Positions 1-20,000 of a DNA stretch of 20,000 nucleotides are shown piece by piece (the stretch's first letter is position 1; each line of letters starts with the position of its first letter). The translations under genes were made by a program, and so were the position numbers. The DNA comes from Rhizaria sp. SCN 62-66 (Eukaryota): positions 52,745-72,744 of the forward strand of contig MEDY01000122.1 in assembly GCA_001724265.1 (NCBI GenBank), read 5' to 3'. The notes beneath the pieces were generated by a model. The model searched no databases. It worked only from the letters and a program-made list of their open reading frames with translations, and was not told the DNA's origin.

Positions 1-1979
1 CTCCTTGCGCGCGTCAAGAGCAAGGACACGGCGCTGCGCGCGACGCTCGAGGCAGCCTTCACGGAGCAGGTCGCGGGGCTGCAGCACGAGACACTGCACG
101 CCATGGCCTCTCTGTTGGGAGGACCCAACTTCGACGGCACGGTGCTGGCGCTGCTGCAGGAGGCGGCAACTGGCGGGCCTGCGACTGCCGCAGCCGCGGC
201 CGAGGAGGCCAAGGCCGCCGCCGCCGCTGCCGCCGCCGCCGCCCGTGGCGGCAAGAGCAGCAGCAGCTGGTGGGGCCGCAAGGGCAAGCGCGAGGTGACG
301 GACGCGCTCACAGCCCGCAGCGCAGTCTTCTCCTGGGTCAACGCGCTGCTGTTGTCACCGGCGCCGGCCGTGCGCGACGTGGGCTTCCTGGCGCTGCACG
401 TGTTCATCTCGAGCAACAAGGCGCTGCTGCCCGCTTTCATCAACCAGTGCTACGCGAAGCAAGCTGCGCTCGGCCGCCGCTACTTCCTCGTCGTTGCGCG
501 CGTCATCCTGCTCTGTTACAGCGGCCACGACTTCGTTGATAACGCACTCGGCCGCAAGTCCCTCGCCAGCAGCCCCACGGGTGACCCCATGGGTACCGGG
601 AGTTACAGCAGCTTTCGCGAGCGCGGGTGGCATATCCCGCTCGACCTCGTGACTCACCTGGCCATTAACAAGCTCGGCGACGCCAGCTACAGCGTGCGTT
701 CGATGGCCCTGCGTCTGCTGCCGCTGCTCGAGCAGCACTTGTCCGAGCACGCCACTGCGCTCGGCCTGTCTAACGTCGCTGCATCGAGTGACCGTGAGCA
801 GCAGCAGCAGGGTGACCGTGAGCAGAGTGACTGTGAACAAGAGGAGGAGCAGCAGCAGTACGGTGGTCTGTTTGGATGGGACGCTGATATGAACTACATT
901 TCGAGTCACTACACCAACACCAACAACAGCAACAGCCGCAGCAGCTTCTACGTCAACAGCCACGGCAACTTTGCTGCCGACAACGAGGAGTGTAAGGGCG
1001 GCGACGAGGACGACTGTGAGGCTAAGAGTGCTGCCGAGGCTGCTGACACCGTTTGCTTGCAAGACGACGCTTACGGCGACGCTGCCCGCTTACGCGCAGA
1101 CGAACACTACTTAGAGCAGCAGGAGAGGTACTCAGAGCAGCAGCAGCAGCGTAAGAGTAAGAGCAAGAACAAGAAGAAGGCTGCCCGGTCTAAGTACCCC
1201 GCGCCCTCAGCGGCGCGTGTAAGGGGCGCCCCCGAGGACGTTCCCTTAGACTGCTTCGACCACGAGCCCTCGGCCATCCTCACCTCGCACCTGCCCGACA
1301 CGTACCTCAAGGTGCAGGTCTCCTGGTCGCGCCGGCTGGCCGGCAAGTTCTCCCACCTTGCGCTGCCGCTGCTGCAGGAGGTCGCGGTGCGGATCCACTT
1401 TGTGGCCACGGCGGCCGAGCAGCAGCAGCTGCTTGAGTACACGCGGCCCTGGCTCCAGCACATCGTGCTCACGAGCGCCGAACACTGCTTCCCGCCCAAG
1501 CCGTCCGCACTCTACGCAAACCCCCTCAGCACCAATGGCGCTGCTGTTGACGCTTCGAGCAACAACAGTCAGAACGTGCAATTCAATAACTTCGTTGAGA
1601 GTGCTGCTGATGGTGCATTTGCGGGCCCTGTTTTCTCGGTCCCGTCGCAGTCGACCTCGACGTGCGTGATCCTCAACGACGCCGACAGCGACGCCCTCAT
1701 CACCTGCCTGCTGGGTCTCATGTGCACGCTCGGTGGCCATTGCGCGCAGCAGCTCGACGGGCTCTGGACTGCACTCGTCTGCTCCACCTTCGCCGAGGAT
1801 ACCACGCCCAGCGCGTACGTCAAGTTCGTTTATAACCCCCTCTCTGTCTCTGCCTCTAACCCTCAGAGCAACACTGCTCGCATGAGTGATAGTGATGGCT
1901 CTGGTGCTAGCGCCAGCAACGGCGGGATGGAGGCCATTTTCGCAGAGGAGGAGCCTAGCAGCAACACAAACACTAACAG
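1..1979 (+). CDS. FRY: Furry/Tao3/MOR2 family cell-morphogenesis scaffold, internal exon, 5'-truncated by the window
   Basis: Frame is open from base 1 (LLARVKSKD...EQVAGLQHETLHAMASLLGGPNFD), so ATG 103 is internal. Motifs match recalled plant/protist Furry blocks: AMASLLGGPNFD (cf. AMASLLYGPCFD), LLPAFINQCY...YFLVVARV (cf. LFPACIDQCY...YFSVLAEV), LAINKLGDASYSVRSMALRLL, HLPDTYLKVQVSWSRRLA...LLQEV...QQQLLEYTRPWLQHI (cf. NLPDSYQQFQYKLSCKLA...HQVLTCMAPWIENL). Exon ends AG|GTACGC at 1979/1980. Confidence 0.88.
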
Positions 1980-2099
1980 GTACGCATTATTTTTCAGTCA
2001 AACGTCACTTTAAAATCACAATTATTCGCATTTCCGTTGAATATCTTCTCACAGTAGATTATGCTTTCCTTGTTTTTGTTATATCTCTTCTCCTTATAG
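1980..2099 (+). other. Spliceosomal GT-AG intron, 120 nt, phase 2
   Basis: Donor GTACGC at 1980, AT-rich body with in-frame TAA (2011-2013), pyrimidine tract and TTATAG acceptor ending 2099. Splicing joins AG+G (Arg) and fuses ORFs 103..2013 and 2107..10812 in frame (...TNTNR-RDVFKMQN...). Confidence 0.9.
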
Positions 2100-5000
2100 G
2101 CGCGATGTGTTCAAGATGCAGAACACCGCGGTTGTTCTGACGCACCTGCTGCTCACCGTGAGCGGCCGCGTCCATGGCCGCTTCGACAACACGTTGCTCC
2201 AGGCCTGCAAGTCGGTCACTCTGTACCTCTCGCGCGCGTGCCCGCTCTACGTGCTCAACGCGCTGGCCCTGCAGGTAACGCCCAACAGCCTGTTCGAGGC
2301 CGGCATTCCCCCGCCTCCGCATAGTAGCAGCGGCGACGCGGCGACCGCGACGTTCTCATCGGTCGCCCATCTCTACGCAAGCAACGGCAACGCTGCCGCT
2401 GAGAGCGACTCGAGTGAGACCGCTATTGTTACCGCTGCTTCTGCGTCTGCGCCTGCTACGAGTTCCAGCAGTTACTCCACCACTGCTGGCCTCTCTAGCT
2501 TCAGCCCCCGCAACTCCGCTAACTCCAGCGCCCCCGGCTCTCACATCGCCGCCGCCGTCGCCGCCCTGAGCAGCGGCGGCGCCGGCGTGGCCGCGGCCGC
2601 GGGCTCCGCCGCGCCCCGCGTGGACTGCGCAGCCGACCTCATGACCGTGGGCGCCAGCGCCTTCACCACGACGGCGCGCTCGACGGACGTCGCCGCCATC
2701 GCCGCCACGGTGCCGTACACGGCGCCTGTCGCGGCCGCCGCGGCAGACGGGCCACAGGGGCCCGGTTTGCTGTTCTCGCCGACAGCGGCCGCCGCCACTG
2801 CCAATACCAGTGCGCACACGCGCAACGCCGTCAACAGTCACTTGAAGTTCACCTTTGCCCCGACGACGACTGCTGGTGCTGCTGCTGCTGCTCCCGGCGA
2901 CTTTGCAGGCAGCAGCGTTGCCGCAACCTACGACGTCCTGGTCAACTCCCCGAACCCCTCCGCCGGACTCGAGGCCTTCACCGTGACGTCCTCGACGGCC
3001 TACGGCAACTACTTCCCCGGCGAGGCAGTGTACATGTCCCCCTCGACGCTCGCACTGTCGCTGCTCATCGACTCCGTGTACGAGCTCTCGCTCCCCGCCG
3101 CCGCCGCTGGGCTGTCCGCAGACACGGCCGCGCTTGAGGCAGGCGCGAGCTATCTTCTGAACAACAACAACAGCAACGGGAGTAACAGCGTGACGGCGGC
3201 GTTCTCCGCGCTATTCCGCCGGGCAGTCTGCGGCCGCAACACGAGCGGCGTGAACACCACCGCCAGCAACGGCTGCGGCTACTACAACAACATCAGCAAC
3301 AACACGAAGGGCGGCGCAAGCGAGAGTGAGAATAGCGGGTGTGTATTGGGCGACAGCTGGTCTCGCCAGCCCGTCTACAGTGCCGCTGCGCTCTTCGAGC
3401 TGCCAACGCTGACCGAGTGCTTGGTGCAGATCTTACACATCGGCGTCCAGGGCTTGGCGGCGCACAACAAGCTCATCGTGCGGCACCACTGCGCAATGCT
3501 GCTTGTGAATCTCACGCACGCCGTCACCTCGCTGCCCCCCATCAAGAGCGCTCACGGACAGTTTGTCGGCTCTGCTGCTCACGGCCACCCCGCCACTGCC
3601 GCCGCTGGTGCGACTATTGGTGGGGGCTACACTGGCGAGCGCGGGGCGTTCGTGCGCGTGCAGCAGCTCAAGGCACAGGCCTCGGCCCGCAAGCAAGGCG
3701 TCACCATGCTGCTCTGCGGGTACCTCGACTCTCTGCTCAAGACCACGGTGGACGATGTGAGCGCGACGATCGCCTTCACGCCGCGCTGCTGGGACATCGC
3801 GCTGCTCTACGACGCTAGCACCAGCGCGCAGACCGCCACCGCCGCGGCCGCCGCGCTCAAGGCCGGTGCGCGCAATCTAAGTACCCCGGCCACCGGTCTA
3901 AGTGCTGGCGCCCCGGTGCCCGACGCCGCAAGTGTGTCTGCGCAGTCCCCCGCCATCACCGTTGACGACGCGTCCTTGACCTCGCGCGTGACACGCTTGC
4001 TGCTCTCGGTCCTCGCCGACGCCGGTCTCTCACAGGCGCAGCTGGCCTTCTGCTGGGGCCATCTCGCGCTGCGCTGGGCGCTGGCGTCGCGCCACCCGCA
4101 GGCCAAGCTGCGCGCGCTCGACGTGTACCGCAACGCACAGCCGCAGTTCCAGCCCTCGGCGCTGCCGCTGCTGGCCCAGCTGCTGGCGCAGACGGCCGCC
4201 GGCACGCCCACCGGGCTGCTCGACGACAGCGTAGAGGGCTGCCTCCGCCGCGCCTGCGCCCCGCTCCTGGGTAACGTTAACTCTAATGATGCGAACTGTG
4301 GCGCTGCGAGCAGCAGCAACGCCGTCACAGTCACGGAAGCGTTTGTGGTTACTCGCGCGCTCGAAGACGCCCTGCAATACGACCGTCGCCGGCTCTTGAT
4401 CGCTGCTACCAGTGTGCCTCAGCTCACCCCTGCCGCAAACGCGTCATCTGCGAGTACATCCACGGGTTCTGACAGCTATAGTAGCAACAACGGCGGTGTC
4501 ACATCCCCGCGTGTTGCTCTGGCCAACCGCATGTCCTCTCTGTCGCTCTCCGACGTCAGCAGCAGCGTCCGCGCCCTGTTGGCCGCCGCTGGCCGTCTCC
4601 CGGCCGGCCGCGCCGAGGTGGCAGCGCTGGGCGCCGGCTTGGGCGCGGCGGCGGGGGCCGTGGACTGGGTCCTGGTGTCCAACACCGTGGGCGCAATGCA
4701 GCACCTGCTGGCGACTGCGCCGGCGGCAGTCATGAGCATCACCAACCACACGCTCGTCGCCGATAGTGACAAGGCGGGGGAGAGCGAGGCGCCGATAACG
4801 CTCATGGGCTGGTGCTCCCTCGCTTCCACTCTGCAGTCGCGCACGAGTGTTGCGGGAGCCACCGCCGCTGTGAGTGCCAAAGCTGTCGCTGCGCACAGGA
4901 CCCGCGCCCTCGGCAAGCTCATTACCGTCGCCGCGGCCTTCCGCGCTGTGCTGTGGTCCGCCGTCGGCCTCATGCGGCTTGACTTGCACACCGACCCCGC

Positions 5001-8000
5001 CGATAATAGTCGCGGCATGCTGCAGTCGCCCGTCTTCCCGCCCGCCTTCACCGCCGGCGCGAGGCTGCTGTCCGCGTTCGTCGACTCGCCGCTCACCACG
5101 CTGCACCCCGTCACGGCCAGCAGCGCGCACAGCGCATACGTCACCTCTCTGAACAGCAACAGTAACAGCAGCAGTACTGGCGCATTGATGGCGCTCACGA
5201 ACAACCGCCGGTGGGCGGTCGCGACGGCCTTCACCCAATTCCTGCAGTGGCACGCCGTGGCGCCGCCCGCGGAGCTGCTGGCGGTTCTCAGCGACAACAA
5301 CGGTGCCGCGCCGCTGCTGGCCGCCGGCGGCGTCCGGACGGCCACCGCGGTCGCCCGGTCCCGCCTGTCGCTCGCGGGCGCCGCAGCCAGCATGCAACAG
5401 TTCCAGTACCAGAACAACAACAGCAGCGGCAACGGAAGCGGCGGCTCCTCGAGTAACGGTGTTGCGCCGATGGCGTTCGCGTTCACCGGGCTGCACGCGC
5501 TGCTGATGCGCGGTGTGAGCACACTTAATACGCACGTCCGCGCCGTCGCCGCGCACAGTTTGCTGTCGCTGTGGTCCGCGCCCCCGACCCTGCTCACGGT
5601 CACCGACGTGGCCTACTTCGACAAGACGCCCTTCCACACCGCGGGCACCGCCGCGGCCGCCGTTACTGCGCTCGCGCAGAGCAACGGAAGCCAGGCCGCG
5701 CTGGGGGCGGCTTACCTTAACGTCGAGACGCTGCTGCCGCAGACCGCGGTGGTGACGGCGACTGTGGAGCAGTTCAACATCGCTGCCCCGCTTCTGCTGC
5801 GCCAGACGCCCGCCTTCTTGGCGCTCGTCACTGCGATTCCTCTGCTGATGCACGCGTTGTCCGAGCCCCGATCCTCGCTGCACGTGTTCAGCGACTTGTA
5901 CGTGCCGGCCACCTCCGCCACCCATAACCCCACCGCTGCGACCGCTAATAACAGCGGCGGCAACGCCGTGTACGTGAGTGGGCCCCAGAGGTCCAAGGCC
6001 GTCGCCGCCAAGGCTGCCGCCCACCAGTCCTCTCTCGCGAACAGCAACGGCAAGAACACCTCCGCCGTTGGTGTTTCGACCGAGAGTGGTTTCTTTGGCG
6101 TGGCCACACACAGCATCCATGACCCCTTTGCGACGGCCACGCTCGTGTCGCTCGCGGCGGGGCTGGCCGAGGCCCTGGCCAAGACGCCCAACGGCGCCGG
6201 GCTGCCCACTGCGCTGCACTCGGTCAACCTCACGCTGTGCCCCAACACCGCCGCTGCCCAGCGCAACGGCAGCAAGAGCAGCAGCTACAGCAACAGCTGC
6301 GTGAGCGGCCACAGCAACGCAGTGCACTACTCGCAGCTGGCGGTTATCCGCGCCGGCTCTGTGCCGCCGCTGCTGGCCTCGACGCTGCTAGCGCTGTCTC
6401 TGGCGGCCAAGGCCCGCGGGCTCGCCTTCGCGCTCGACGAGGTTGAGCTCAGCGCGGTCTTCGCGGCCTACTGCGAGAACGAGTACTACGAGCTCAAGTT
6501 CGTGCCTTTCTCCAACGACCAGGACGTGGCGCCCGACGACTCGTCGCTGCGTCGCCAGGCGGTCTATTTCTCGCGCACCCATAGTACGGGGGTGGGGGGC
6601 CGCGCACATGCCGCGAATGCGGCCGCCGCAGACCGTTCCCGTGCTCTGCTGTCGCCGACCGCTTCGGCGGCACTGACGTCGCCGCTGGCCTCTGCGTCGT
6701 TCTCGTTCTTCCCGTCCAATTCCACGTCCATCTCGAGCTCTCTTTCCTCGTCCAACGCGAAGTCTTCAGCGGCATCGTCGTCGAAGTACCCCCTTGGTGC
6801 TTCCTCTGCTTTGCCCCCCGCAGGCTACACGGCTTACACTCACAGCGACGACACGGCGGGCGGCCTAACTTCCGCCGGCGGCCTCTCCGTCCCGCCCGCG
6901 GCGCGCTTCCTGCAGGACGCGGGCGCTGTGCTGGCCGAGGCGCTGGCGTCGCTGCAGGTCTCGGCGTCGTCCCGCCTCACCAAGACCACGGCCGTCACGA
7001 CGGTGCTGACCGCCTGCGCGAGTCTGCTGGAGCCGCTGCTGCGGCCGGTGCACTCGCTCGCGCTGCTCGACGACCCGCACTACCACAACAACGCGAGCGG
7101 CACCCGCGCCGCCGCAAACGGCCGCCATGGCTTCGGCTCCGGCTCCGCAGGCCCCGCGGTCGGCACCGACGGTGTCTTCCGTCTCCCGACCGCTTTATCG
7201 TCGCTGTCTGTGCCCAGCGCGCTCGCACTGCTCCACACGCTCGGTGCGGGCTCGGCCGCCACGGCCGCGTCGCTGCGCGCGTCCGCCACCGCCTACCTCG
7301 GCCAGCTCCAGCAGCAGCAGCAACAGGCTAACAACATCAACGACTCTAGCGCGAGCACGAGTATGAGCGTGAACGCCAGCGTCAACACTGCGACTGCGAT
7401 GCTGCTTTCGGCGCTGGATCCTTCTCTGGCGCGCGCGCTGGCCGTCAGCGGCCCCGGCGACGAGCTTCTGGCGCTGCACACACTGCGCTTTGAGGCCCAC
7501 CAGACCGAGCTGCTGTACGCGATCATGGCGCACTCTGACTGGGGCTCGCCCATCTCTATCGACTCCGCGAACACGGCCAACAGCAGCAACGCGGTGGTCG
7601 TCGCGAGCGGCAGAGCGGGCAGCACGCGCAGCTCCGTCAGCGGCAGCGGCGCCGTCACTGGGGCGGGCGCGTCCCGCCTGGCCGAGGCCGCGGCCGCGGG
7701 CGCGCTCTTCCACGAGCTGGGCGAGCTTCTGGCCACGGCCGGCTGGCGGTCGATCGACCGCGTGCTCTCGCTCGCCGTGCGCACCAACACGGCCTCGGCC
7801 AGCAGCAGCACCGATCACGGCGACGGCGCGCGCGGCGGCTCCAGCACCGAGGTCGAGGACGGGCTGCGGTCGCGCCGCTACCTGGCCCACGTGGCCATGT
7901 CCGCGCCGGGCACGTACACCACCAGCGTGGGCTTCGCGACGCAGCAGGCGGCGTCGGTGGCCGCGCAGCTCGAGACGGCGCGCGTGGCTTGCCACAGCAA

Positions 8001-10812
8001 GGCGCTTGCCCGCAGTGCCAAGCAGCAGAGCGACGTAATGCGCCGCCGCTCGCTCGCGTTTAATAACAGCGACAACAGCAGCGGCAACGGTGCTAACACC
8101 CCGAACGCTGCTGCGAAGCTGAGCACGCGTGCTGTCGTCGTCGACGGCGCCGACGACGGCGACGACGTTGGCGTGGGCGAGGTCGTGGCTACCGGCGTCC
8201 GCCGCAACCGCGCCAGGTTTTCGCTGGCGCCCGCCGCGGCCAACTTCAGCGCCTTCGACGGCAAGGAGCAGCGCAAGCCCGATGCCGAAGAGGAGGACGA
8301 GGAGGACGGTGTCGGCGTGCCAACTGCGCACAGCAACCTGACGAAGCCGCCTAAGTCCCACGGCGCACAGCCGCAGCAGAGGCCCATGAGACCGACTCCG
8401 CCCGTGCCTGTCCGTCGCCGCCCGGCCCCCGCGATTCCGTCTACCGCGAACGCTGCTATCGATGAGAGCAACAGCGAGTTGACCGACACCATTCTCAACA
8501 GCTTGAATGTCGGCGCCGGAAGCAATGCAGTCGTTACCACGACCAACAAGGGTTCGACAGTCACCGTCACTGTCACGGCCACTCTGTCCCCGCGTGCGAA
8601 CGCGGCCAATGGCGCCAGCAGCGGGCATACCAAGGGCAAGAACAACTTCAACATCACGAGCGTCAACAGCGTCGTCACCGACAACAACAACGGCGCCGTC
8701 ATTGCCACCACGAATAACAACAATAATACCGCTCACACTAATACTGGCGCTAGTGGCTTCCTGAACGCCACCGCCCCAGCGAGTGGAATGAAGAAGCGTG
8801 GTGTCGCCCTGGCCCCTGTGACCGTGGACTCCGACTCCGAGGCCGAGACGGAGCCCGTCCCCCGCCTGCATACTATGGGCCTCGACCCCGCACCCGAGTA
8901 CGACGACATTGACGCGATTGCGTACGCGCAGCAGCAGGCGGTGGCGGCGGCGGCCGCGGCGGCTGCTGCGATGACGGAGCAGCAGCGCCAGAACCAGGCG
9001 TACCACACCGCGAACTACTCGAGCGACCACGTCAGCAGCGCCACCGCGAGCGCTACTGCTGGCGGCCCTGAGTATGCTGACGACGGCGACTATGAGCACA
9101 AGGAGCAAGACGAGGAGTACTACTCCGACCACGAAGACACTGGCTATGACCAGGATCAGGACCAGGAGGCTGAGGCTGAGTCTGAGGATGAGGCCGTGCT
9201 GGCGCTGGTGCAGTCGTCGGCGTTGTCCAGGTCGCGTCGGTCGCTGCTGATGTCCGAGCAGCAGCGCGCTGACATGGAGGCCGAGGCCGCCGCCGCCGCT
9301 GCCGCCGCCGTCGCCGCCGTCAAGGCCCGGGCGCAGCAGGCGCAGGCTCAGTCTCGCGCTCATGCCCAGGCCCAACAGCAGCAGCAGCAGGATTACGCCG
9401 ACTATGACGATGAGGAAGATGCCGGCAGCGAGGCCGAGGCCGAGGCGGCGCTGCGGGCCCGCGAGGCCAACCGTGACAGCTACCTGGACCAGCTTATGGT
9501 GTCACCCCGCAGCCACCACACTGGCGGCGGCCGCCACGGCCACCACAACAACAGCGGCAGATACTACAACAACAACGACGACGACGACGACGCTGACCAG
9601 GACGGCGACTGCGACGAGAACGACGTGAATGCCCACTTACACGATGTAAGTATCAGCGGGCTCGACGACAGCTCGGTCGATCCGGACACCGTGATCTCAT
9701 TCGCCAACGCCATCGCAGACGCGATGAAGGCCATCACCAACACCGCCGCCACCAACAACAGCAACGGCAGAAACAGCGGCAACGCCGGCTCTAGAGCCAG
9801 CGCCAGAAACCCGTCCGCCAAGGCCAACGCTCCCGCTGCGACTACCCGGGCGAACGCAGCCTCCGTCAAACTTGCCGCTGCTACTGGCGCTGGCTCTAGC
9901 GCTGCTGGCAAGAGCGCGAGCGCCCGGGCGGCGGCCGTTGCGGCGCGGCAGCAGCAGCAGCAGGCTTTGATCAAGGCCAACAAGCAGAAGGCCGGCGCCG
10001 GCGCCCCTGCGGCCCCCGCGGCGGCAGCCGCTGCTGCCCCCGCTGGCGCCGGCCCCAGCATGCTGACCGCGGAGCAGAAGCGTGCAATGATGATTGTCCG
10101 CAACGCACTCAGCCCCCGCCCCAATAACAACAGCGGCAACAGCAGCAGTGGCAGTGGCAGTGGCAATGCGAGTGCGGGCGTGCCTCGCGTGGCCAATCTC
10201 GCCAGCACGCGCACTGCGGCGGTGCAGCACACGCACAACGCCCACGCCGCTAGCAGCAGCAACGGCAACATCAACGGCAGCAGCACTGGCGCTGGCACTC
10301 CGTACAAGTCGCCGCTGATGCGCCCCGCCTCGGGCAACACACACGGCTCGCCGGCGCCCGCCTACAGCAGCAGCAGCGGCAGCGGCGGTAGTAACAGCAA
10401 CGTCAGCGCTGTTGCGAGCCGCAGTGCTGCCCTGGCCGCGGGCCGCAGCGCCAACGCAGGCGCCGCGAACGGCAACGCGCGTGTGGTGCCGTTGTCGTTC
10501 AACGGCAACAACAGCGCTGCCTCGGCTAGCGCGAGCAGCAACAGCCGTCTTAAATCCCCTGCACCGGCGCCTGCCACCGCCGGTGTTGGCAGCAGCTCGA
10601 GTGCGGGCGCCGTCAAGTCCCCGCTGCTGGCGGCTATGCGCGCGGCCAAGAAGGAGCCGGGCAATCCTCAGCAGCAGCAACAACAGCAGCAACAGCAAGG
10701 CGGCAATGTGCGCCGTATGGGTGGCACTGGCCTCACGGCGAGCTATCAAGAGTTGGAGGCGCAGCTGAGGGGCGCGGGGCACCTCGATCTTGGCCCTCCC
10801 CCACAGAAGTAA
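2100..10812 (+). CDS. FRY: Furry/Tao3/MOR2 family protein, terminal exon (about 2,900 aa, conserved blocks separated by long low-complexity insertions, disordered C-terminal tail)
   Basis: Uninterrupted frame with strong GC3 bias, ending at TAA 10810-10812. Furry-like blocks: NTAVVLTHLL...ACKSVTLYLSR, LVQILHIGV...IVRHHCAMLLVNL, WGHLALRWALASRHPQAKLRALDVYRNAQP (cf. WGAEALKWAMECTSRHLACRSHQIYRALRP), VLWSAVGLM. Confidence 0.85.
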
Positions 10813-11308
10813 GGGCGGAGACACTTGAGTATAATGTTTAAGAAGTACACGTACTTCATCATCATCATTTGCTTTGCGGCTCGCGAGTCCTTTGAATTTG
10901 TTTTGTTTATAGTTTTGTTTGATAATACGTTTACAAAAAGCGAGATGCAAGCTGTCGATAATACGATTATATAATCTTGAGGAATAAGACACATCGACGA
11001 TGATCTCGAAAAGAAAGATTATGATGATGGCGAAGTTTGATTATTATGATAATGATGACAGATCGTTTGTTGCATCAATATGAGAAAAGAAGAGAATTAA
11101 CATGTAAAAATACAGTTCTATTGTTTACGACGTTAAAAAAATTGTTCAGAGGGCGTGAAGGTACGCTAAGAAAATGAAAATAAATCTATGTATTGTGTGA
11201 TATTTAAGTAAACAAGTCAAGCACGTTACTGTCCTTGCAGCAACGATTCTATGTAAACTAAGCTAATTCTAAGAGTAAATCGGAACTGATTAATGTTCAA
11301 AGTTGTAA
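10813..11308. other. AT-rich spacer (about 500 bp) between convergent genes, containing both 3' UTR/termination regions
   Basis: Sharp drop in GC between TAA 10812 (+) and TGA 11309-11311 (-); no credible coding frame. Confidence 0.75.
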
Positions 11309-12416
11309 TCACTCATATTCCTCGTCATCATTATTTTGAAAATACTGCATGAGAGCGTCAACGTAACTGATAGAGCCATCTCCGTCAGATTTGTCGCCAC
11401 TCTCGGTGTTATTGGCGTCATCGGCGGCCGTGTTGATGTTCGCCTCGAGATAGTCACCGTCATTGCCGTCGTCATCATCGTCGTATTCGCCGTGGACGTT
11501 GTTATTGTCGTTGCCATCCAAAGCAGCGGCGTCAGCGTTGCTGTCGTCGTTGTGGCTCTGAGTGGTGATGTCAGTTGTGCTGCTGTCGTTCGCATAGCGA
11601 GACCGTTTAACGACAGCACCACTCTCATTCACATCAGATTCACCGAAACCTGTCTCACCGGCAGTGTTATCACTGCTTTGGTCGAGCGCACGCTTAGAAC
11701 GACTATTGGCGGACGCAACATGGGTGCTAGCGTTCCCATGATTAGCATAAACAGGGCCGACAACAAGCCTCGCAGGCGACAGTCCGTTGTAAACGTCAGC
11801 CATACTGTTGCTGGCGCCCCCATCGTCGTCACCAGGCAAGGGCGGCGTCAGACTGGGAACAGCCCTGCCACTCACCGGGGCAGCAACCAGACTCGCCGCC
11901 GAAACAGGCGCGCTCAGCCCGGTCCTCGGCGTCGTCCCGCCTGTGCCCGCGCCCGGCTTGAGCGCCCCCGGGGGTGTCGCCGTATTGCGCAAGGCGCCGA
12001 GCCCAATCGGCGAGACGGACAGCTGCGTCCTGAACCGCGGCAACAGCGTGCCACTGTTGGTGGCGCTTCCGCTCCCAGTGGCCCCAGCAGCCGCAGCACC
12101 GCCGGCGCCCGCGGGGGCGTTGACGCTCGGGCTCGAGGTCGCGCTCACGCCGACTGCGGACGCCGGCGGCGTGAGGCTGTTGCCGTTGGTAGGCGGGGTA
12201 TAGACCGCGGCGGTCGCGGCGTTGGCGCTGTGCTTAGACGCGTCTAAGTGGCTGGCCTGCGGCGGTGTCAGAGCAGGCGTTACGATCAACGTAGGGGTGC
12301 TAGAGCCGTTGTCACTGGCAGCGCTAGAGTTAGAATTTGAAATAGAGCGACTACCGCAAATGTGGGTTGTACTGCTGGTCGGCGTTTGTGCTCGCTGAGC
12401 CCGCTGCTGCTGCTGA

Positions 12417-12449
<33 letters not shown>

Positions 12450-15400
12450 TGCTGTTGCTGTTGCTGCTGAGTGCTGCTTGGATGACCGTGCGCGCTATAG
12501 CTCCCATGATGCTGGGTATTGTGACTGCTCGGCGGAGTGTTCGCAACGCCGTCGACGCTCCCAGGCGACCGGACCGGCCGACTATGGCTCTGGCGAGTCG
12601 TGGCGTCGTTGCTGGTGTTAAAAAAAACGTTATCACCCGTTGGCGACCGCGACAAAACCTCTGGAGTAAGACGTTTCATCGCGAAGGGCACCGGCACCGG
12701 CAGTGGCATCGGACTCTGGCTCTGGCTCTGGCTCCGGCTTTGGTCAACCGACCGGCTGCTGGCATCCCAGTCGTCGTTGTCGTCAAAGTCATCATTGTCG
12801 TCTTTGTTTTTACCGCTGCTACTTGCAGTGTTAACGATCTCGTTCTTGGGCGATCGTGACTGTGAGCCGCTGCTACGGGGGCTGCGGCGGAGTGACTGCT
12901 GCGAGGCCGCCTTGTTCTGAGTGGCGGGCGAGTGTGGGCGGGACTGCGCCCGGGACTGCGGCCGCGACTGCGAACACAGCCTACGCGCACTATCATCCGC
13001 ATCACCATCAGCAGTGCCATCGACGCCTGTGCTGGCTGCAGTCGCAGTAGCCGTTGCCATAGCAGCAGCAGCGGCAGCCTCGGAGGCAGTCCGAACTTTC
13101 GAGCGCGGGCTAGTCCTCGTGTTGAATCTCGTGTTCGTGTTACCAGTGCTGTTCTGCGACTGCACGTTCAACGGCGACTGCGATTGTGAGTGCTGAGCCG
13201 TATTGACGGCCCGGAACGGCGTTTTGCGCGGCGCAAACGGCGACGCCGCCGCGAGGAGCGCGCCCGTCGCACCCCTCACGCCCACGCTGACGCCGGCGAC
13301 AGCGGCGCCGAGGCCGCTGCCGCCTGCGCCGGCGCCGGGGGTGACGCTCGTGGCGGCGACCGAGGCGGCGGGGGAGACGCTGATGCTGATGTTGGTGTCG
13401 TTAGCGTCGGCGCTGTTGTCGCGAGAGAGCGTCGTCTTTGGTGCGGCTGAGCTTGCCGTCACGCCATTGGGGTTATTGTTATTGTTGTTGTTGGAGTTGC
13501 TCCGACTCGTGCGCTGCGAGAGTAAGGCAAAAGCTTCGTCAAAGTTTTCAGGAGCTTTGCCACTGCCGTCATGAGCAGCGCTGGCGTCACCGCCAGCAGC
13601 AGCGTCGCCACTTCTGGGGGTAGCATGCTGTTGTTGCTGCTGAGTCTTGCTTTTTCCCTTCCCCTTAACCTTCCCACCGCCAGTTGCGGGCACAGCAACA
13701 CTGCTGGCATCAAAGCTCGCACTCGAGCTATCATTATCATTACCACCAACATTCGCGACAGCAATGGCACTGGCATTGGCGGTGTTGCTGCTTTGCGGTG
13801 TTGCAAGAACAGGCGGCAGCTTCGAAGGGGACACGGACTGAGGGCCGATGCGCCGAGGCCGGCCACTTACATTCGAGTCGACACTTACGTTGTACAGTCC
13901 CTCGGCACGTACACCGCCAACGCTGACAGCACTTACATTGACGCTGCTTTGCAAGGCCGAACGCTTAGACGCGGCACCCTTAGATGCCAATGCACTTCCA
14001 TTCAACTCGCTATCATTACTGTCGGTAGAACTCACAGGAGCACCTACAGCAGCAGGAGTCGCCGTCGCGACAGGGACCGCGACGCTGGCAATGGTCGAGT
14101 GACCATGCGCGGCAGCAGCGGCAGCGTGGGAGCGGGCGCCGGCAGCAGCAGCGTGCACAGCGTTCATGGTGTTGCTGTTGTTGTTATGGGTTGAGGAGCG
14201 GATGAAGTTCTGGTTAAAGCTCGTGAAATCGCTGAAGCCGACGCTGTTGTTGTCAAAGGCGCCAATAGTGACTCCGTTTGAGTTCGCGTGAGCCGCTGCA
14301 GTCATAGCTGCCGCGTTGTTGCTGTTGTTGCCATTGTTGATGTTGTTATTGTTGCTGCTTGCGTTGTTTACGGGAGCGACTGTGGGCAGGTTGGACAGCT
14401 CTGAGTATCCCGGTGCTTGGGGCTGCAGCGGTAAGTACCCCGGGCGGGAGTGTAAGTACCCTGGCGGCGGAGAGTGCGAGTACCCCTGGTTCTGCCCAAG
14501 CAGAGGCGGACTCATCGCTGCCATGTTCGCGCTGCCAGAGCCGCTGCCCGCATGCGCGCCGGGCCCGTTGGCGTTGCTCGCTCCGTTTGCGCCCGTGCCC
14601 GCAGCGTTAGCAGTGTTATGAGGTCGGCCCCTGCTCTTGCCACCGGCGTTGACGCCGCCCACGGCAGCGGCATGAGCACTCGCAGCGCCAGCAGCGGCAG
14701 CAGCAGCAGCGTTGGCGCCGGCAGTGGTGATACTCTCAGCCGCACTGTTGCTGCTGCTAGGCGCGAAGGGAGCCATCGAGTGACCGTGAGCAGAGTGACC
14801 GTGAGCAGAGTGGGGCGAGACGTAGGTATTGTAGAACTGACTGTTGTTCACGGCCATATAAGGGTACGGACGCGGCTGGGACATGTAAGGGGGATGCCCC
14901 GCCATGTAAGGGGGGTGTTGGCCGCCCATGTAAGGGGGATTCTGGGGGTTGTAGGGCGGGTAACCATGAGTGTAAGGGGGGGCATGTTGCGAGTTGTAAG
15001 GGGCGTGCTGTGAGTTGTAAGGTGGGTGTAAGGGCCTGGTGTAAGGGGTCGGGTAGCCAGAGCCAGGAGCAATCATCGCTCGAGTGCTGCCATGACTACC
15101 ATTCGCACCTGCAGTGTTAGACTTGTTCTTATCAGTGTTCTGTTGTTGCTGTTGTTCCTCGACCGTGCTTTCGCTGTTGCCTGCAGGGGCTTTGTCCAAC
15201 GCTACAGCGCTAGTCGCAGCTTCGGTGTTGTTACTGTTGCTGTTGTTGTTGCTGCTGGCGCCAATCGAGGTTGTACGCGCACTGAAAGCGGAGAAATCTA
15301 GGGGGCCGTCGTCGGAGCCCTTAGACTCGATACCCTTAGATGGACCGACGTCCTTGGATTCAAGACCCTTAGACGGGGGCTGAGCACCCCTAGAAGCGCC

Positions 15401-18400
15401 CGTGGTCTGTCCCTTTTGTGACTGAGCGTCCGCGGCTTTGCCATTGGCGTCGGCATTCATTGTACTAGAAGCTGCTGTTGTCGCCGCCGTCGTTGCCGTT
15501 GCCGCTGCCGCTGCCGCTGCTGTTGTTGTTGTTGACGCCGGGGGCAAATATGACTGAAGTTGCAAGTATGACTGCGACTGCAAGTGCAGGTGCGAGCGTT
15601 GCGGGCTCAGCGGAGAGATGAACTTACCAGGCCCGCTTACATTCGCGCTCGAGGCGGTTACATTCCGGACCGAAGTACTTACACTGGCGTCACTGCCACC
15701 GCTATTTGTGTTCGCGTGAGTTGTCGCACCATTTGACGCCGTGTTAACATTAACAGGAGCAGCAGCGGCTTTAGAAGTAGCGGCGCCCGCGGCAGCAGGA
15801 GCAGCAGCAGCAGCAGCGGCGGCGGCGGCGGCAGCGGCGGCGGCGGCGGCAGCGGCGGCAGCGGCGGCAGCGGCGGGGCCACCCCCCTTTTTCCTGTTGT
15901 TCGCAGCCGAAACGACTCCGGCAGTCGCGCCGCCGGCGGCAGGAGTGACCGGGAGAGCAGCAGCAGCGGCCTTAGCGACGGCTTTCGTCTTGTTAACGGC
16001 GGCGACGGCGAGACCGTCACGCGCAGTAGAGCGATTGCTTGCCGTATCGTCCGCGTTTGAGTCGACAGTAGGGCTCGTTGGATCAGTCACGACATCAGCC
16101 TCGGCCTCAGCCTGGACCTTAGCGTGACCCTCAGAATTGCCCTGCTGATCAGCTTGAGTCTCACCATTGTCCGTTGCCTCAGCAGCAGTATTGGTCACAG
16201 TTTTGCCACCATTATCACTTACATTCGCACTTGCACTGTTCTTACTGGCGGTTTCAGTGGAGTTAACGCCGACGTGGAGGGGGTTGTAAGGGGGCGCAGG
16301 CGGCCGCGCCCCCGGCGTGTACAAATGTAAGTACTGCTGCTGTTGCTGTTGGTGTTGCGGCCCCTGCGCGTGTAAGTAGTGCACGTGTAAGTGCTGCATG
16401 TGCGCAGGCGTATGCTGCGAATATAAGCCGCCCGCAGCAGCCGGAGATTGAAGCATCGCCGTCCCTGCCTGCACCCCCCCGGCTCCTCCATAGTAAGGAG
16501 CCGGGGGGCTGGCCGCGACGCCCCGCTGCGGCAGCGGCATCGGGGTCGACGCCGCCGCCACCGCCGCTGCTGCGGCAACCGCAGCCTCCGCCGCCGCTGT
16601 CGTCTTGACGCCGCCACCAGCAGCAGTAGCGGAGTGACCGTGGGCAGCGGAGTGACCGTGCGCGGAGGAGGCGTGGCGGGCGTGGACTGCCTTCGGGGCC
16701 GGCGAGTGGGTGATCAAAGGACTCGTAATCACGAAATTGGCACTGACTGCCAATGTTGACTTAGCAGGATTGGCGCTATTGCCCTTAGCAGCCGCAGCAG
16801 GGTCGGCCGCGTTCGCTGCCTTGGGCGGAGCCTTTTTGGTCAACAAGGGCGTTTTGAAGCGGCTACCAGCATTAGCATTCGCAGTCGCGCTGCTGCTTGA
16901 GCTTGGCAAAGGAGCCGGCGATGAAAGGGGGACTTGCGGAGATGCAAATACTCCCTGACCCTTACTCCCTTTGTTGTTGACCGTCTGGGCCGCGGAGGCA
17001 CTTACACCTTGTAAGGGCGGCAGGGGCGACACCAGCACGGCTGACTCGGCGGCGGCACACTCAGCAGCATTGCCAGCAGCAGCAGCGTCTTTCACGTGAC
17101 CGATGCCGTTTCCAACAACACTCTTGGACGCGTTGGCGCCAGTATCAGCGTTAGCCGCGTTACCATTGTCGTTGCTGTTATCAATGGTGTCATCGTTGTA
17201 GCTCTGCTCCTGCTCCTGCTCATGTTGCTGCTGCTGCTGCTGCTCTTGCGGCAAGTGCGACTGCGAGGGCGGCTGCGCTTGTTGCTGCATCTGCAGCTGA
17301 AGCTGCTGTCGGTGCTGGAAGTTCAGCTGCTGCAGCTCCTGCTCCTGCCGCTGCTGCAGCTGCCGCTGCTCCTCCATGTGCTGCTGCTGCATCTGACGCA
17401 TGTGCTGCTCGTGTTGATGGTACAGCGCCTCCTGCTGCGGGCGCCCGAAGCTGGGGTTGCTCTCGAGCTCGAACTGTCGCCGCTGCTGGTATTGGCTCTG
17501 GAAGGCCTGGTATTGGTGGTGCTGGAGCTGCTGCTGGTGGCTGCGCTCGGCGTGGTGCTGGTGCAGCAGCAGCTGGTGCTGGTGCTGCTGCTGCTGTTGC
17601 TGATGCTGTGCCTGTTGCTGTTGCTGTTGCTGCAGCTGCTGCATGGGCATGGGCGGTTGTTGAGCCATATAAGGAGTGTAAGGATGGTGTTGCATCGGGT
17701 AAGAAGGGTAAGTACCCACGGGGTTGTAAGGGCCGCCCATGTAAGGGCCAGCTCCTGGGTAAGGCTGATGCTGTTGGTGGTGTGAATACATGTGCAGCTG
17801 GGTGGGAAAATGCTGCGACGGCATGTGTGGCGGCTGCTGCTGCTGCCTTTGCGTCATAGCGTTGCTCTTATTAGCCGCCGCCGCCGCTGCAGCAGCAGCG
17901 GCCGTGACCGCCGCCGCCGCCGCCGCCGCCGCCGTCGTCGTCTCCATTTTCGCGCCCACCGAGGCGCCGCTGTCTTTGGCCGCGGCCTTGCGGGCCTTGA
18001 CCGAGGGAACCGTTGGGCGGCCTGACTTCGATTCGCCGCCAGCAGCGCCGTTGCCGACCGTAGTGGCAGCAGTTGCCGACAAAGCGTTCGGGTTGCTGTT
18101 GTAGGCGTTGGCAGCGGTGCTCGCGATGCCAACGCCCGCCCCGACGGCTGTGTTACCAATGGGATTGAAACTGAGACTGCGGCTGACCGTCGCAGCACCC
18201 GTGGCAGCGGCCCCAGTGGGTCCGCTGGCGCTGCCGTAGTTGACTGCGATGCCTGCACTGGGGTGTTGTGCGGCGAGGTTGACGTTCCCGCTTGAGTTGC
18301 TGTTAACGGTGAGCGCAGGATTGGCGCTCAAAGCGTTCGGGATGGCGTTACTGTTAGCTGTTGCTGTTGACGCAACTGCAGAGTCGGCGTCAAATGAGAA

Positions 18401-18430
18401 CGAGTAAAGGATTAAATACGCGCCATTCTC
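11309..18430 (-). CDS. Terminal exon (2,373 aa) of a large, mostly disordered protein with poly-Q, poly-A, PY-rich and N/S-rich tracts
   Basis: The ORF extends upstream of the TTG at 18331 to an acceptor TTATAG| (AG at 18432-18431). The exon starts in phase 0 with ENGAYLILYSFSFDADS and ends DDEEYE-TGA (11311-11309). Confidence 0.85.
12403..12469 (-). repeat. (CAG/CAA)n coding microsatellite, poly-Gln (Q17-H-Q4)
   Basis: Run of (gct/gtt) triplets on +, in frame in gene 2. Confidence 0.9.
14880..15050 (-). repeat. Degenerate 6-8 aa PPY/APY peptide repeat (HPPYNSQ-HAPYNSQ-HAPPYTHG-YPPYNPQ-NPPYMGGQ-HPPYMAG-HPPYMSQ)
   Basis: Recurring TGTAAGGG on + at roughly 21-24 nt spacing. Confidence 0.8.
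15800..15874 (-). repeat. (GCC/GCT)25 poly-Ala tract
   Basis: 25 consecutive Ala codons in gene 2. Confidence 0.9.
17205..17645 (-). repeat. Gln/His-rich low-complexity region (CAG-rich)
   Basis: Dense (ctg)n on +; translation QQLQQQQQQQAQHQQQQQQHQHQ...QEQQQQQQHEQEQEQ. Confidence 0.85.
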
Positions 18431-18636
18431 CTATAAGCCGCACAAATGATGCACAAAGAAAACATCCAAGCATACAATAACGTGACCGTGTGAGGAGGCG
18501 ACACACAAACGACAAATTAATGCGTCATATACACGAAAAGCAATGTAAAACAAGCCAACATATATGAGATTGTAATAGATGCACTATGCCATAAAATCGC
18601 ATCATCGCGGCGACATCTTTGTTGCTAAAAACGTAC
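18431..18636 (-). other. Spliceosomal GT-AG intron, 206 nt, phase 0
   Basis: Donor GTACGT at 18636, acceptor TTATAG ending 18431, AT-rich body. It has the same GTACG/TTATAG signature as the FRY intron and joins ...KKLNKE to ENGAYL... Confidence 0.8.
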
Positions 18637-18909
18637 TTCTTTGTTAAGCTTCTTGCAAATGTCGCCGATCGTAGGTATGTCAGCCTTGGCAGTCTTGTTC
18701 TTACCACCGCTGCCAGACTAGAGCGTCACCGTCGCGTCCGTGTGCGCAAGCAGCGTTAGCTTCGGCGGCTTCCCGCCCCACAACGAGGCCGGGGTGAGGC
18801 GCTAGTGGAGCCGTTTGACGGCCTTGGTCGACAGCCAGGAAGCGGGGAGCTAGAAATCGCGCGTGCTTTTGCTGCCCGTGCGCTCGACGATGCGTCCCAT
18901 TTCGAATGG
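18637..18909 (-). CDS. Exon 2 (91 codons) of gene 2, with three in-frame TAG codons: PFEMGRIVERTGSKSTRDF*LPASWLSTKAVKRLH*RLTPASLWGGKPPKLTLLAHTDATVTL*SGSGGKNKTAKADIPTIGDICKKLNKE
   Basis: GC-rich island bounded by acceptor GTACAG| (AG at 18911-18910) and donor |GTACGT (18636), both phase 0. Hand count gives 71/91 codons ending in G/C. The translation resembles the TKI1/CRAMP1 conserved domain. Confidence 0.72.
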
Positions 18910-19093
18910 CTGTACGGTAAAATATGGAGAATCGTATAATTAGTAGTATGACAAAGTATTGATGAGACATACCCAAATATGGATGCATACCAAGCGAAAG
19001 AGAGAAACGGTGGTGGAGAGTCATCGGAGGGAACGTTGCACGAGACGGTCTATATCGCGGCTTAACAAAGGGAAGTAGTAATAGATAACGTAC
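18910..19093 (-). other. Spliceosomal GT-AG intron, 184 nt, phase 0
   Basis: Donor GTACGT at 19093, branch-point-like TACTAAT about 30 nt before the CAG acceptor ending 18910, pyrimidine/AT-rich body. Confidence 0.7.
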
Positions 19094-19138
19094 AAATGGA
19101 ATGAGTCGGAGGGTGACTGTGCTGCCGTCCGACGCCAT
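19094..19138 (-). CDS. Probable first coding exon of gene 2 (MASDGSTVTLRLIPF)
   Basis: ATG at 19138 (context CACATGG), 15 codons, then a GTACGT donor in phase 0. VTLRLIP resembles the TKI1/CRAMP1 motif IKLQLFP. Confidence 0.68.
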
Positions 19139-19708
19139 GTGTATAGAAAGAAAGCTAGCCCGCGGACGGGTGCCTGTGGGTTGCAGAGGGGGATGGCGAG
19201 TGCATGTGAGAAAGTGGGAGCGCGGGAATGAGTGCATAGAGTATCAATAGGCGTTTCAGGAAATATAATAAGGTAGTCAAGTATAAAAGTGGATTTTAAA
19301 ATCGATATCTGAACAACGCATCTGTTAACGGATATCGTGCATCGCTGGATACGTTCGAAGATAAGTGATCTGGAAGGCGCGAGAACGACTCGTTTCGCAT
19401 CACGTAACTCTACCAGAGCCAATATACTTTTTACGTCATTTAACGACCAGACTCTTGAGATATGCAAAGAAATTGATAGCGTTATGATATAAAAAGATAA
19501 GTTGAATTGATTTGAAGACTTCGATGTGTATGATTATGAGTTTCTTTCGCAGCAGCCCGCCTTGAAGGACGAGCCCAAAGCGAGAGCAAACTTCAGTCTA
19601 TCTAGAGAAGAGAGAGTGAGATAATGAATGGGTGAGTGCAAAGAGTGCGCAGTAATGCCGCACTCTTACACCAGAGCGGCTAAACTACTCATACTCGTCA
19701 TCACCAGC

Positions 19709-19786
19709 GCAACAGCAGCAGCAGCAGCAGCGCAGAGCGCAGCCGCAACAGCAGCAGTAGCAGCGGTGACAACAGCAACAGCAGCA
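19709..19786. repeat. Non-coding (GCA)n-type trinucleotide tract in the RPS18 3' UTR/downstream region
   Basis: gcaacagcagcagcagcagcagcagcg...acagcagcagtagcagcg...acagcaacagcagca, 45-125 nt after the RPS18 stop. Confidence 0.7.
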
Positions 19787-19831
19787 AAGCTCGCCTCAGT
19801 GACGGCGGTGGCTCGTTGGTGGTGAGCGCAT

Positions 19832-20000
19832 TTACTTGCCAGCAATGAGGGAGGTGGTGCCACGGTGACGGCCGTTGCTCTTGGTGTGCTGGCCACGGAC
19901 GCGGATGTTCCAGTGGTGACGGAGACCACGGTGGACACGGTTGCGCTTCATGCGCTCGAGGTCGTTACGGAGGCAAGTGTCAACGGTGGAGCCGATGAGC
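19832..20000 (-). CDS. RPS18: 40S ribosomal protein S18 (uS13), C-terminal part, 5'-truncated by the window; absent from the supplied ORF track
   Basis: Frame starting at 19999 reads [58 protein letters not shown] (19834-19832). This matches the uS13 signature [35 protein letters not shown]. Confidence 0.96.

Follow-up and report, generated by a model that had tools for sequence, protein, structure and literature searches.

Three in-frame TAG codons in one exon of a protist gene are best read as a feature of that gene and not of the genetic code

How can a gene that appears to be in use carry three in-frame TAG codons within a single short exon? The question is raised by a 20,000-nucleotide stretch of contig MEDY01000122.1 from Rhizaria sp. 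SCN 62-66, referred to here as the window, in which the second exon of a minus-strand gene (the TAG-bearing gene below) is interrupted by TAG three times in its own frame. A sequence-only reading of this DNA had taken UAG for a sense codon of the organism's code, probably specifying Gln. Our best reading is instead that the three UAGs are a feature of one gene and not of the organism's genetic code. The account towards which we lean, tentatively, is that the mRNA contains exon 2 and that the UAGs are bypassed, in this gene alone, by editing, suppression or readthrough; this is favoured over skipping of the exon, and the striking claim of a new nuclear code with UAG as Gln is disfavoured.

The window is a eukaryotic contig whose exons are GC-rich (GC content at third codon positions, GC3, of 0.66-0.83) and whose introns are AT-rich and start with GTACG. 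A run search found near-identical DNA in metagenomes of bioreactors, wastewater and activated sludge, the work of several studies dated 2015 to 2025. Its gene content is three: a Furry/MOR2-PAG1 homologue on the plus strand (hereafter Furry) and, on the minus strand, the TAG-bearing gene and the 3' end of an RPS18/uS13 gene. For the TAG-bearing gene, the splice signals, gene model and choice of frame first proposed from the letters held good, with GTACGT donors, TACAG and TATAG acceptors and phase-0 exons. Exon 1 (19094-19138, 45 nt) consists of an ATG at 19138-19136 followed by 14 codons (MASDGSTVTLRLIPF), and ends in phase 0 at a GTACGT donor; its codon log-odds score is -0.018, the exon being too short for scoring alone. 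An in-frame ATG further upstream, at 19237, was rejected as the start since the stretch from there to 19139 is not coding-like (log-odds -0.56). Intron 1 (18910-19093) is 184 nt long, runs from GTACGT to TACAG and has TACTAAT about 30 nt before the acceptor, the junction being predicted from sequence. Exon 2 (18637-18909) measures 273 nt, or 91 codons, is of phase 0-0, and combines its three in-frame TAGs with a coding signature in frame 0. Intron 2 (18431-18636) is 206 nt long and runs from GTACGT to TATAG. The GC contents of the two introns, 0.42 and 0.40 respectively, contrast with the 0.60 of exon 2. Finally, exon 3 (11309-18430) is open immediately from the acceptor onwards and comprises 2,373 sense codons followed by TGA.

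The three TAGs, all read on the minus strand, lie within 133 nt. The first is codon 20 of exon 2 (18850-18852, context TTC TAG CTC), the second codon 36 (18802-18804, CAC TAG CGC) and the third codon 64 (18718-18720, CTC TAG TCT). Translation confirmed the positions originally given for them, as well as the statement that this frame lacks TAA, TGA, CAG and CAA; it has two TGG codons. Each of the other two frames of the exon contains both TAA and TGA. The GC3 bias that had been reported is likewise present, at 0.78 (71/91) in the frame of exon 2 compared with 0.51 and 0.50 elsewhere. Scored by codon log-odds, with Furry as the training gene, this frame reaches +0.446 per codon, whereas the other two come out at -0.886 and -0.646; its value is within the range of exon 3, for which the mean is +0.544. 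When the exon is divided at the TAGs, the four resulting segments have GC3 values of 0.74, 0.87, 0.93 and 0.59, and in each of them GC3 exceeds both GC1 and GC2, the corresponding values at first and second codon positions. The signature thus holds in all four segments, which indicates that the frame continues through the TAGs without a shift, and GC3 peaks (0.87 and 0.93) downstream of the first of them. The GC3, log-odds and segment values together support the suggestion, flagged earlier as an inference, that the frame of exon 2 is translated or very recently was.

Should intron 2 be retained, the frame of exon 2 would meet a fourth TAG at 18625-18627, three codons past the donor (GAA GTA CGT TTT TAG). 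Read on into intron 2 in this way, the first four stops are all TAG and the next is TAA, at 18519. Two further ideas about the TAGs were rejected: a clustering of CTAG as a motif (25 CTAG in the window against 24.8 expected) and mini-introns ending at the TAGs (there are no GTACG donors inside exon 2).

The gene as a whole is live, not dead. Exon 3 has no stop in its coding frame, compared with 44 and 136 in the other two, and it is coding-like from its first codon, the first two windows of 91 codons scoring +0.77. Its first in-frame ATG comes only 161 codons into the exon, and none of those 161 codons is a stop. Since the exon is coding-like for that distance before its first ATG, ribosomes must enter it already in frame from upstream. 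The ATG triplets of exon 3 number 32 in frame 0, 62 in frame 1 and none in frame 2. The exon 3 product is of low complexity, with tracts rich in A, Q, N, S, T, G and P and with poly-A, poly-Q and poly-N runs, and the DNA holds several 3-nt repeat arrays. Complexity is highest in the product of exons 1 and 2: its entropy over 60 residues is 3.9 bits, whereas 60-residue windows from residue 151 onwards average 3.26 and do not exceed 3.73. This suggests, on composition, that exons 1 and 2 may encode the one folded module of the protein, for which a beta-grasp fold is conceivable.

No relative was found that could say what this module is. Pfam yielded no family at E<=1 for exon 2, the overlapping frame or any stretch of the 2,373-residue product of exon 3, and a phmmer search of 1,835,955,588 representative proteins gave no true match; the alignment to a TKI1 motif, which the sequence-only reading had offered, was therefore not reproduced. 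The sole phmmer match of the exon 2 product, a repetitive bacterial-type repeat protein of 3,445 residues, was discarded as spurious, the score being driven by repeats. A search of metagenome contigs with the N-terminus of exon 3 returned 596 pattern matches and not one relative. By these searches the TAG-bearing gene is an orphan.

How unusual the three TAGs are may be judged from the rest of the coding sequence at hand. In-frame TAG occurs three times among the 91 codons of exon 2 and not once in the remaining coding sequence, the 5,938 codons of exon 3 and Furry. TAG triplets are present there, 26 in exon 3 and 24 in Furry, and every one is out of frame; in exon 2 they are found in frame 0 only. 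This pattern is more than chance, and the anomaly is statistically unlike both a change of code and neutral decay.

Why, then, is bypass of the UAGs favoured? Firstly, the coding signature persists past the first stop and is strongest after it. Secondly, the splice signals flanking exon 2 are consensus for this contig. Thirdly, compositional complexity in the protein is confined to what exons 1 and 2 encode and, fourthly, intron-poor unicellular eukaryotes rarely skip exons. A last consideration is the base that follows each TAG, which is a pyrimidine at all three sites (C, C and T) and a purine after five of the six true stops of the window and of L001, a contig from a relative treated further on (G, T, A, G, G and A; hand Fisher test, p = 0.048).

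On this account exon 2 would be a genuine coding exon of a live gene, the protein consisting of a short complex N-terminal segment and then about 2,300 low-complexity residues. With two short introns bearing consensus signals, inclusion of exon 2 in the mRNA is what would be expected by default, and full-length protein would be made only if the three UAGs were bypassed at the level of RNA or of translation. Candidate mechanisms are UAG-specific editing (UAG to UGG by adenosine-to-inosine, or A-to-I, editing of the ADAT type, or UAG to CAG), a conditionally available suppressor tRNA, and programmed readthrough. Three UAGs in a row would hold the protein tightly off unless a bypass activity were present. 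If a single amino acid is inserted, we infer that Trp best fits the distribution within the gene: exon 3 has one TGG, hence a single Trp, in 2,373 codons, while exon 2 has two TGG in addition to its three TAGs, so that reading TAG as Trp would remove the paradox of exon 2 having the codon and exon 3 lacking it.

Several points weigh against bypass, or against particular forms of it. Trp at the TAGs would give five Trp in 91 residues, which is unusually many, and on our own reading of the hydrophobic pattern two of the TAG sites look solvent-exposed, apparently suiting Gln or another polar residue better. Neither Pfam nor phmmer supplied a homologue that would show which residue belongs at these positions. 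The A of UAG falls in a predicted hairpin loop at one of the three sites, against 36% of 50 control UAGs, exon 2 as a whole folds no better than shuffled sequence (z = +0.67), and the readthrough motif CARYYA is absent after the TAGs of exon 2. The symmetry of exon 2 (273 nt, phase 0-0) also means that skipping leaves an open frame. As regards affiliation, comparison of RPS18 with chains of the Protein Data Bank (PDB) was without a clear taxonomic outcome: the RPS18 of L001 scores about 200 bits against chains that we take to be from Neurospora and Chaetomium, and no better than against those presumably from S. pombe or plants. On these scores the organism appears not to be a filamentous ascomycete, and nuclear UAG editing would then be unprecedented in its lineage.

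The RNA contigs give no evidence for any step of a bypass, which adds to these points. In the polyA metatranscriptome of run X5, contigs were obtained on 18258-18496 and on the 3' end of RPS18 (19560-20000) only, and in run X8 there was cover on RPS18 only. No X5 contig lies on exon 1 or exon 2 and no splice joints were reported in four runs, this lack of cover being uninformative on expression. The gene's only RNA contig (18258-18496; 239 nt, word depth 4.8) is unspliced at the boundary of intron 2 and exon 3, running across the acceptor at 18430/18431 and 66 nt into intron 2. It could represent pre-mRNA, a retained intron, a transcript start inside intron 2 or DNA carry-over, and it is evidence for neither the inclusion of exon 2 nor its skipping. 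Protein searches with the N-terminus of exon 3, aimed at open reading frames from spliced RNA assemblies, gave no matches among proteins of 97-310 residues or of 30-96 residues.

By analogy, the closest precedent for a bypass of this kind would be the restorative A-to-I mRNA editing described for filamentous ascomycetes, in which UAG is changed to UGG by Tad2/Tad3 during sexual development (PMC11156358, PMC10776026). In Fusarium graminearum, 71 genes are described as needing UAG-to-UGG editing of premature stops in the sexual stage, one of them, PUK1, with tandem UAGs (PMC11156358). The present case resembles those described in that source in that the in-frame stops are gene-specific, are UAG only (3/3 here) and leave the frame otherwise intact; several UAGs in one gene are also known there, from PUK1, and the effect in those fungi is conditional expression (PMC11156358). 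It differs in that the host is apparently not a filamentous ascomycete, that the preference of fungal editing for hairpin loops is not apparent at the three sites (1/3), that the case is known from DNA alone and that three stops within 133 nt are denser than in the ascomycete cases described. Programmed readthrough, including that of so-called pseudo-pseudogenes, offers a second comparison. Its known cases involve one stop, rarely two. As there, each stop here is followed by a pyrimidine (C, C and T), a weak termination context, and the gene looks functional; on the other hand, there are three stops, UAG-CARYYA is absent, and no stable structure lies downstream. Readthrough three times in succession would yield very little product.

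The alternative that survives best, although we regard it as unlikely, is that the TAGs are true stops and exon 2 is a symmetric cassette, or 'poison', exon: exon 1 would be joined directly to exon 3, or translation would begin at a downstream start after short upstream open reading frames. The product of direct joining is in frame, MASDGSTVTLRLIPF being followed by ENGAYLILYSF and the rest of exon 3, as expected from an exon of 273 nt and phase 0-0 whose removal keeps the frame. An mRNA that included exon 2 would encode a peptide of only 34 residues, and such RNA would probably be degraded. This explanation needs no unusual decoding and directly accounts for the absence of TAG from exon 3 and Furry. 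The single polyA-RNA contig lacks the junction of exons 2 and 3, and constitutive inclusion of exon 2 is accordingly unproven.

Known poison exons are coupled to nonsense-mediated decay and are symmetric exons with premature stops, skipping of which restores an open frame. Exon 2 is like them in its symmetry and in its three premature TAGs. Poison exons are, however, typically met with in animals and plants, not in intron-poor protists, and no codon signature would be expected past their stops, whereas exon 2 keeps its signature through and beyond the TAGs. This last difference is the principal difficulty: an exon left untranslated after codon 20 would have no cause for codon periodicity, yet its GC3 is 0.87, then 0.93, after the first TAG. 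Two more TAGs acquired by drift would be improbable in the absence of an eroded signature, and so selection for three stops has to be assumed. Skipping is also opposed by the consensus splice sites on both sides of exon 2 and by its rarity in intron-poor unicellular eukaryotes, which splice by intron definition, and it would remove most of the only high-complexity segment of the protein. Depletion of ATG, considered as a sign of a long leader, was rejected: between the first TAG and the first in-frame ATG of exon 3, the ATG-free gap of 479 nt is not exceptional, since the gene has a gap of 684 nt elsewhere and Furry one of 646 nt. A test expected to be positive for a long leader thus came out negative.

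The preference for a bypass of the UAGs must also be set against decay of the exon, a process the sequence-only reading had soundly listed, together with editing and readthrough, among its alternatives. Neutral decay was simulated with 65 real windows of 91 codons from the two large genes, mutated neutrally toward the composition of introns and with indels left out. In these simulations a median of 116 substitutions was needed for three simultaneous stops, by which point mean GC3 had fallen from 0.76 to 0.59; among the runs conditioned on stops, GC3 of at least 0.78 was kept in 4.6% and all stops were TAG in 11%. When the load was fixed at 5-80 substitutions, the outcome of exactly three stops, each of them TAG, was reached in no more than 2.1% of runs under any of three mutation models, and at loads of up to 20, which leave GC3 intact, in no more than 0.6%. 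Inclusion of indels would lower these figures further, the frame of exon 2 being unbroken. Neutral decay therefore fits poorly, and the stops are not the debris of an old pseudogene.

A recent death of this N-terminal exon is improbable, if less so than the explanations that remain to be treated. Here exon 2 would have lost its function, the protein would work through skipping or downstream initiation, and the TAGs would be early neutral hits, for instance C-to-T changes of CAG to TAG. Of the codons that a single transition turns into a stop, CAG is much the most frequent (266 CAG, 61 CAA and 21 TGG in the other genes), so that a bias to TAG among nonsense mutations is expected, in line with the 11% of simulated runs in which all stops were TAG; furthermore, any scan of very many windows turns up rare events. 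These arguments are countered by the low frequency of exactly three stops, all TAG, at any load and above all at the loads that leave GC3 untouched. The combination of all-TAG stops, no remaining Gln codon and GC3 of at least 0.78 was seen in only 1 of 3,000 stop-conditioned runs. The splice sites are intact and there is no frameshift. Moreover, three stops within 133 nt stand against none in the 161 codons that precede the first ATG of exon 3.

A genome-wide change of code, with UAG read as Gln or another amino acid and only TAA and TGA terminating, was the headline of the sequence-only reading and is in our view very improbable. Reassignments of UAG alone do exist. The two lineages originally listed, Iotanema spirale (UAG as Gln) and a rhizarian, exLh (UAG as Leu), are an out-of-date tally, phyllopharyngean ciliates adding three events (PMC5304391, PMC11687900). 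As described, exLh has 384 UAGs in 71 genes (PMC5304391), while in the phyllopharyngeans UAG accounts for 18.5-31.8% of the Gln codons or 6.5-10% of the Leu codons, at least one UAG being present in 78-91% of genes, or 78-84% in the lineages where it specifies Gln (PMC11687900). Exon 2 is like these systems in having in-frame UAG inside an otherwise coding frame, and its three TAGs in the absence of CAG and CAA point the same way. Gene ends are also like theirs, TAA or TGA only: within the window, Furry, the TAG-bearing gene and RPS18 end in TAA, TGA and TAA, respectively, as had been stated, and the three genes of L001 bring the count to 6/6 without TAG (five TAA, one TGA), although six genes are too few to count in favour of a changed code.

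The difference lies in the distribution of the codon. UAG is in ordinary use in the lineages just named, whereas here it is restricted to a single exon of 273 nt and missing from about 5,900 other codons, including those in the rest of the same gene. No TAG stands among the 5,938 codons of Furry and exon 3, of which 327 encode Gln (266 CAG and 61 CAA), 418 Leu and 129 Tyr; for a usage as low as the lowest yet published, a hand calculation puts the chance of finding none at about 1e-29 (18.5% of Gln codons) or 6e-13 (6.5% of Leu codons). On these counts the proposal of UAG as a sense codon is not supported. Within the TAG-bearing gene itself the split is three TAG and no CAG or CAA in exon 2 against no TAG and 182 CAG or CAA in exon 3 (hand hypergeometric, about 1e-6), and 113 of the 182 lie outside poly-Q runs. 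By analogy with the ratio of TTG to CTG, 51:189, an old reassignment would predict tens of TAGs. Upstream of the window the Furry frame may continue for some 1,645 codons without a stop, to judge from the length of the database open reading frame P0004 alone. No tRNA genes were found in the window or in the loci L001-L006, a result that says nothing about the genome as a whole.

Those six loci were the outcome of a search of metagenome contigs with the C-terminus of RPS18. Only L001 is close, its RPS18 being 89.6% identical over 163 nt; the other five are more distant, at 60-72% nucleotide identity over most of the match, L005 reaching 86.7% over only 60 nt. L001 (positions 1-4080) is not syntenic with the window and there the genes after RPS18 are a thiolase and a zinc-type quinone oxidoreductase, both without introns. 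All three of its genes end in TAA despite GC3 values of 0.81-0.84, and their 935 codons include no in-frame TAG, a further count against a changed code.

An artefact, whether from misassembly, faulty sequencing or a chimeric contig, is scarcely credible, for although the window derives from a metagenome assembly, contigs assembled independently in two other studies, one of run X3 spanning 17950-19698 with 0 differences from the window and two of run X4 spanning 18209-19698 with a sole difference at 19273, outside exon 2, carry the same letters across exon 2 and both introns, and the TAGs are thus not assembly errors.

Of the neighbouring genes, Furry occupies 1-1979 and 2100-10812 on the plus strand, ends in TAA and was identified through Pfam family PF14228 (E = 1.5e-9), its only detectable Pfam region; long low-complexity inserts occur throughout. 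Its intron (1980-2099, plus strand, 120 nt, in-frame, GTACGC..TATAG) is of the same style as those of the TAG-bearing gene. The window contains 3,563 sense codons of Furry, the first 659 of which overlap P0004 (2,304 residues, recorded on a contig of 91 kb); the complete homologue probably exceeds 5,000 residues. P0004, the window's own open reading frame, was the only match among longer proteins in a search with the Furry N-terminus, and a search of genome contigs with Furry gave 36 pattern matches and no relatives. Furry and the TAG-bearing gene are convergent, and the AT-rich spacer of 496 nt between them (10813-11308; GC about 0.47 over 10501-11500) must hold the 3' untranslated regions (UTRs) of both.

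RPS18/uS13 is represented by its last 55 codons (19999-19835, minus strand), with a TAA stop at 19834-19832. The start of its 3' UTR (19699-19830, minus strand) is a GC-rich imperfect (CTG)n/(CAG)n array of period 3 and about 29 copies, which is present in the RNA contigs. The UTR measures about 200-270 nt, polyA-RNA contigs ending near 19560 (X5) and 19636 (X8). The window contained no Rfam families, and a scan for sigma-70 promoters and terminators has no bearing on a eukaryote.

If exon 2 is skipped or dead the case is an ordinary one, yet it warns that three in-frame TAGs together with TAA and TGA gene ends in one window can mimic a change of code; the neighbouring genes served here as the control that exposes such a false change. 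Of the readings still standing, a gene-local recoding system outside the fungi is the most interesting, doubtful as it is. In it, an uncultured wastewater protist outside the filamentous ascomycetes would gate a giant, mostly disordered protein by UAG-specific recoding of mRNA in the exon of its single small folded N-terminal module, the UAGs being converted or suppressed only where a dedicated activity is present, for example A-to-I editing to UGG of an ADAT-like kind or a suppressor tRNA expressed conditionally. 'Restorative' recoding of stop codons in nuclear genes would then have had an independent origin. To our knowledge, gene-specific correction of premature UAGs as a nuclear phenomenon is so far known only from ascomycete fungi. 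Should the UAGs prove to be bypassed in one mRNA, such correction would not be confined to those fungi, and the TAG-bearing gene would provide a concrete locus for finding the responsible enzyme or tRNA in an environmental protist.

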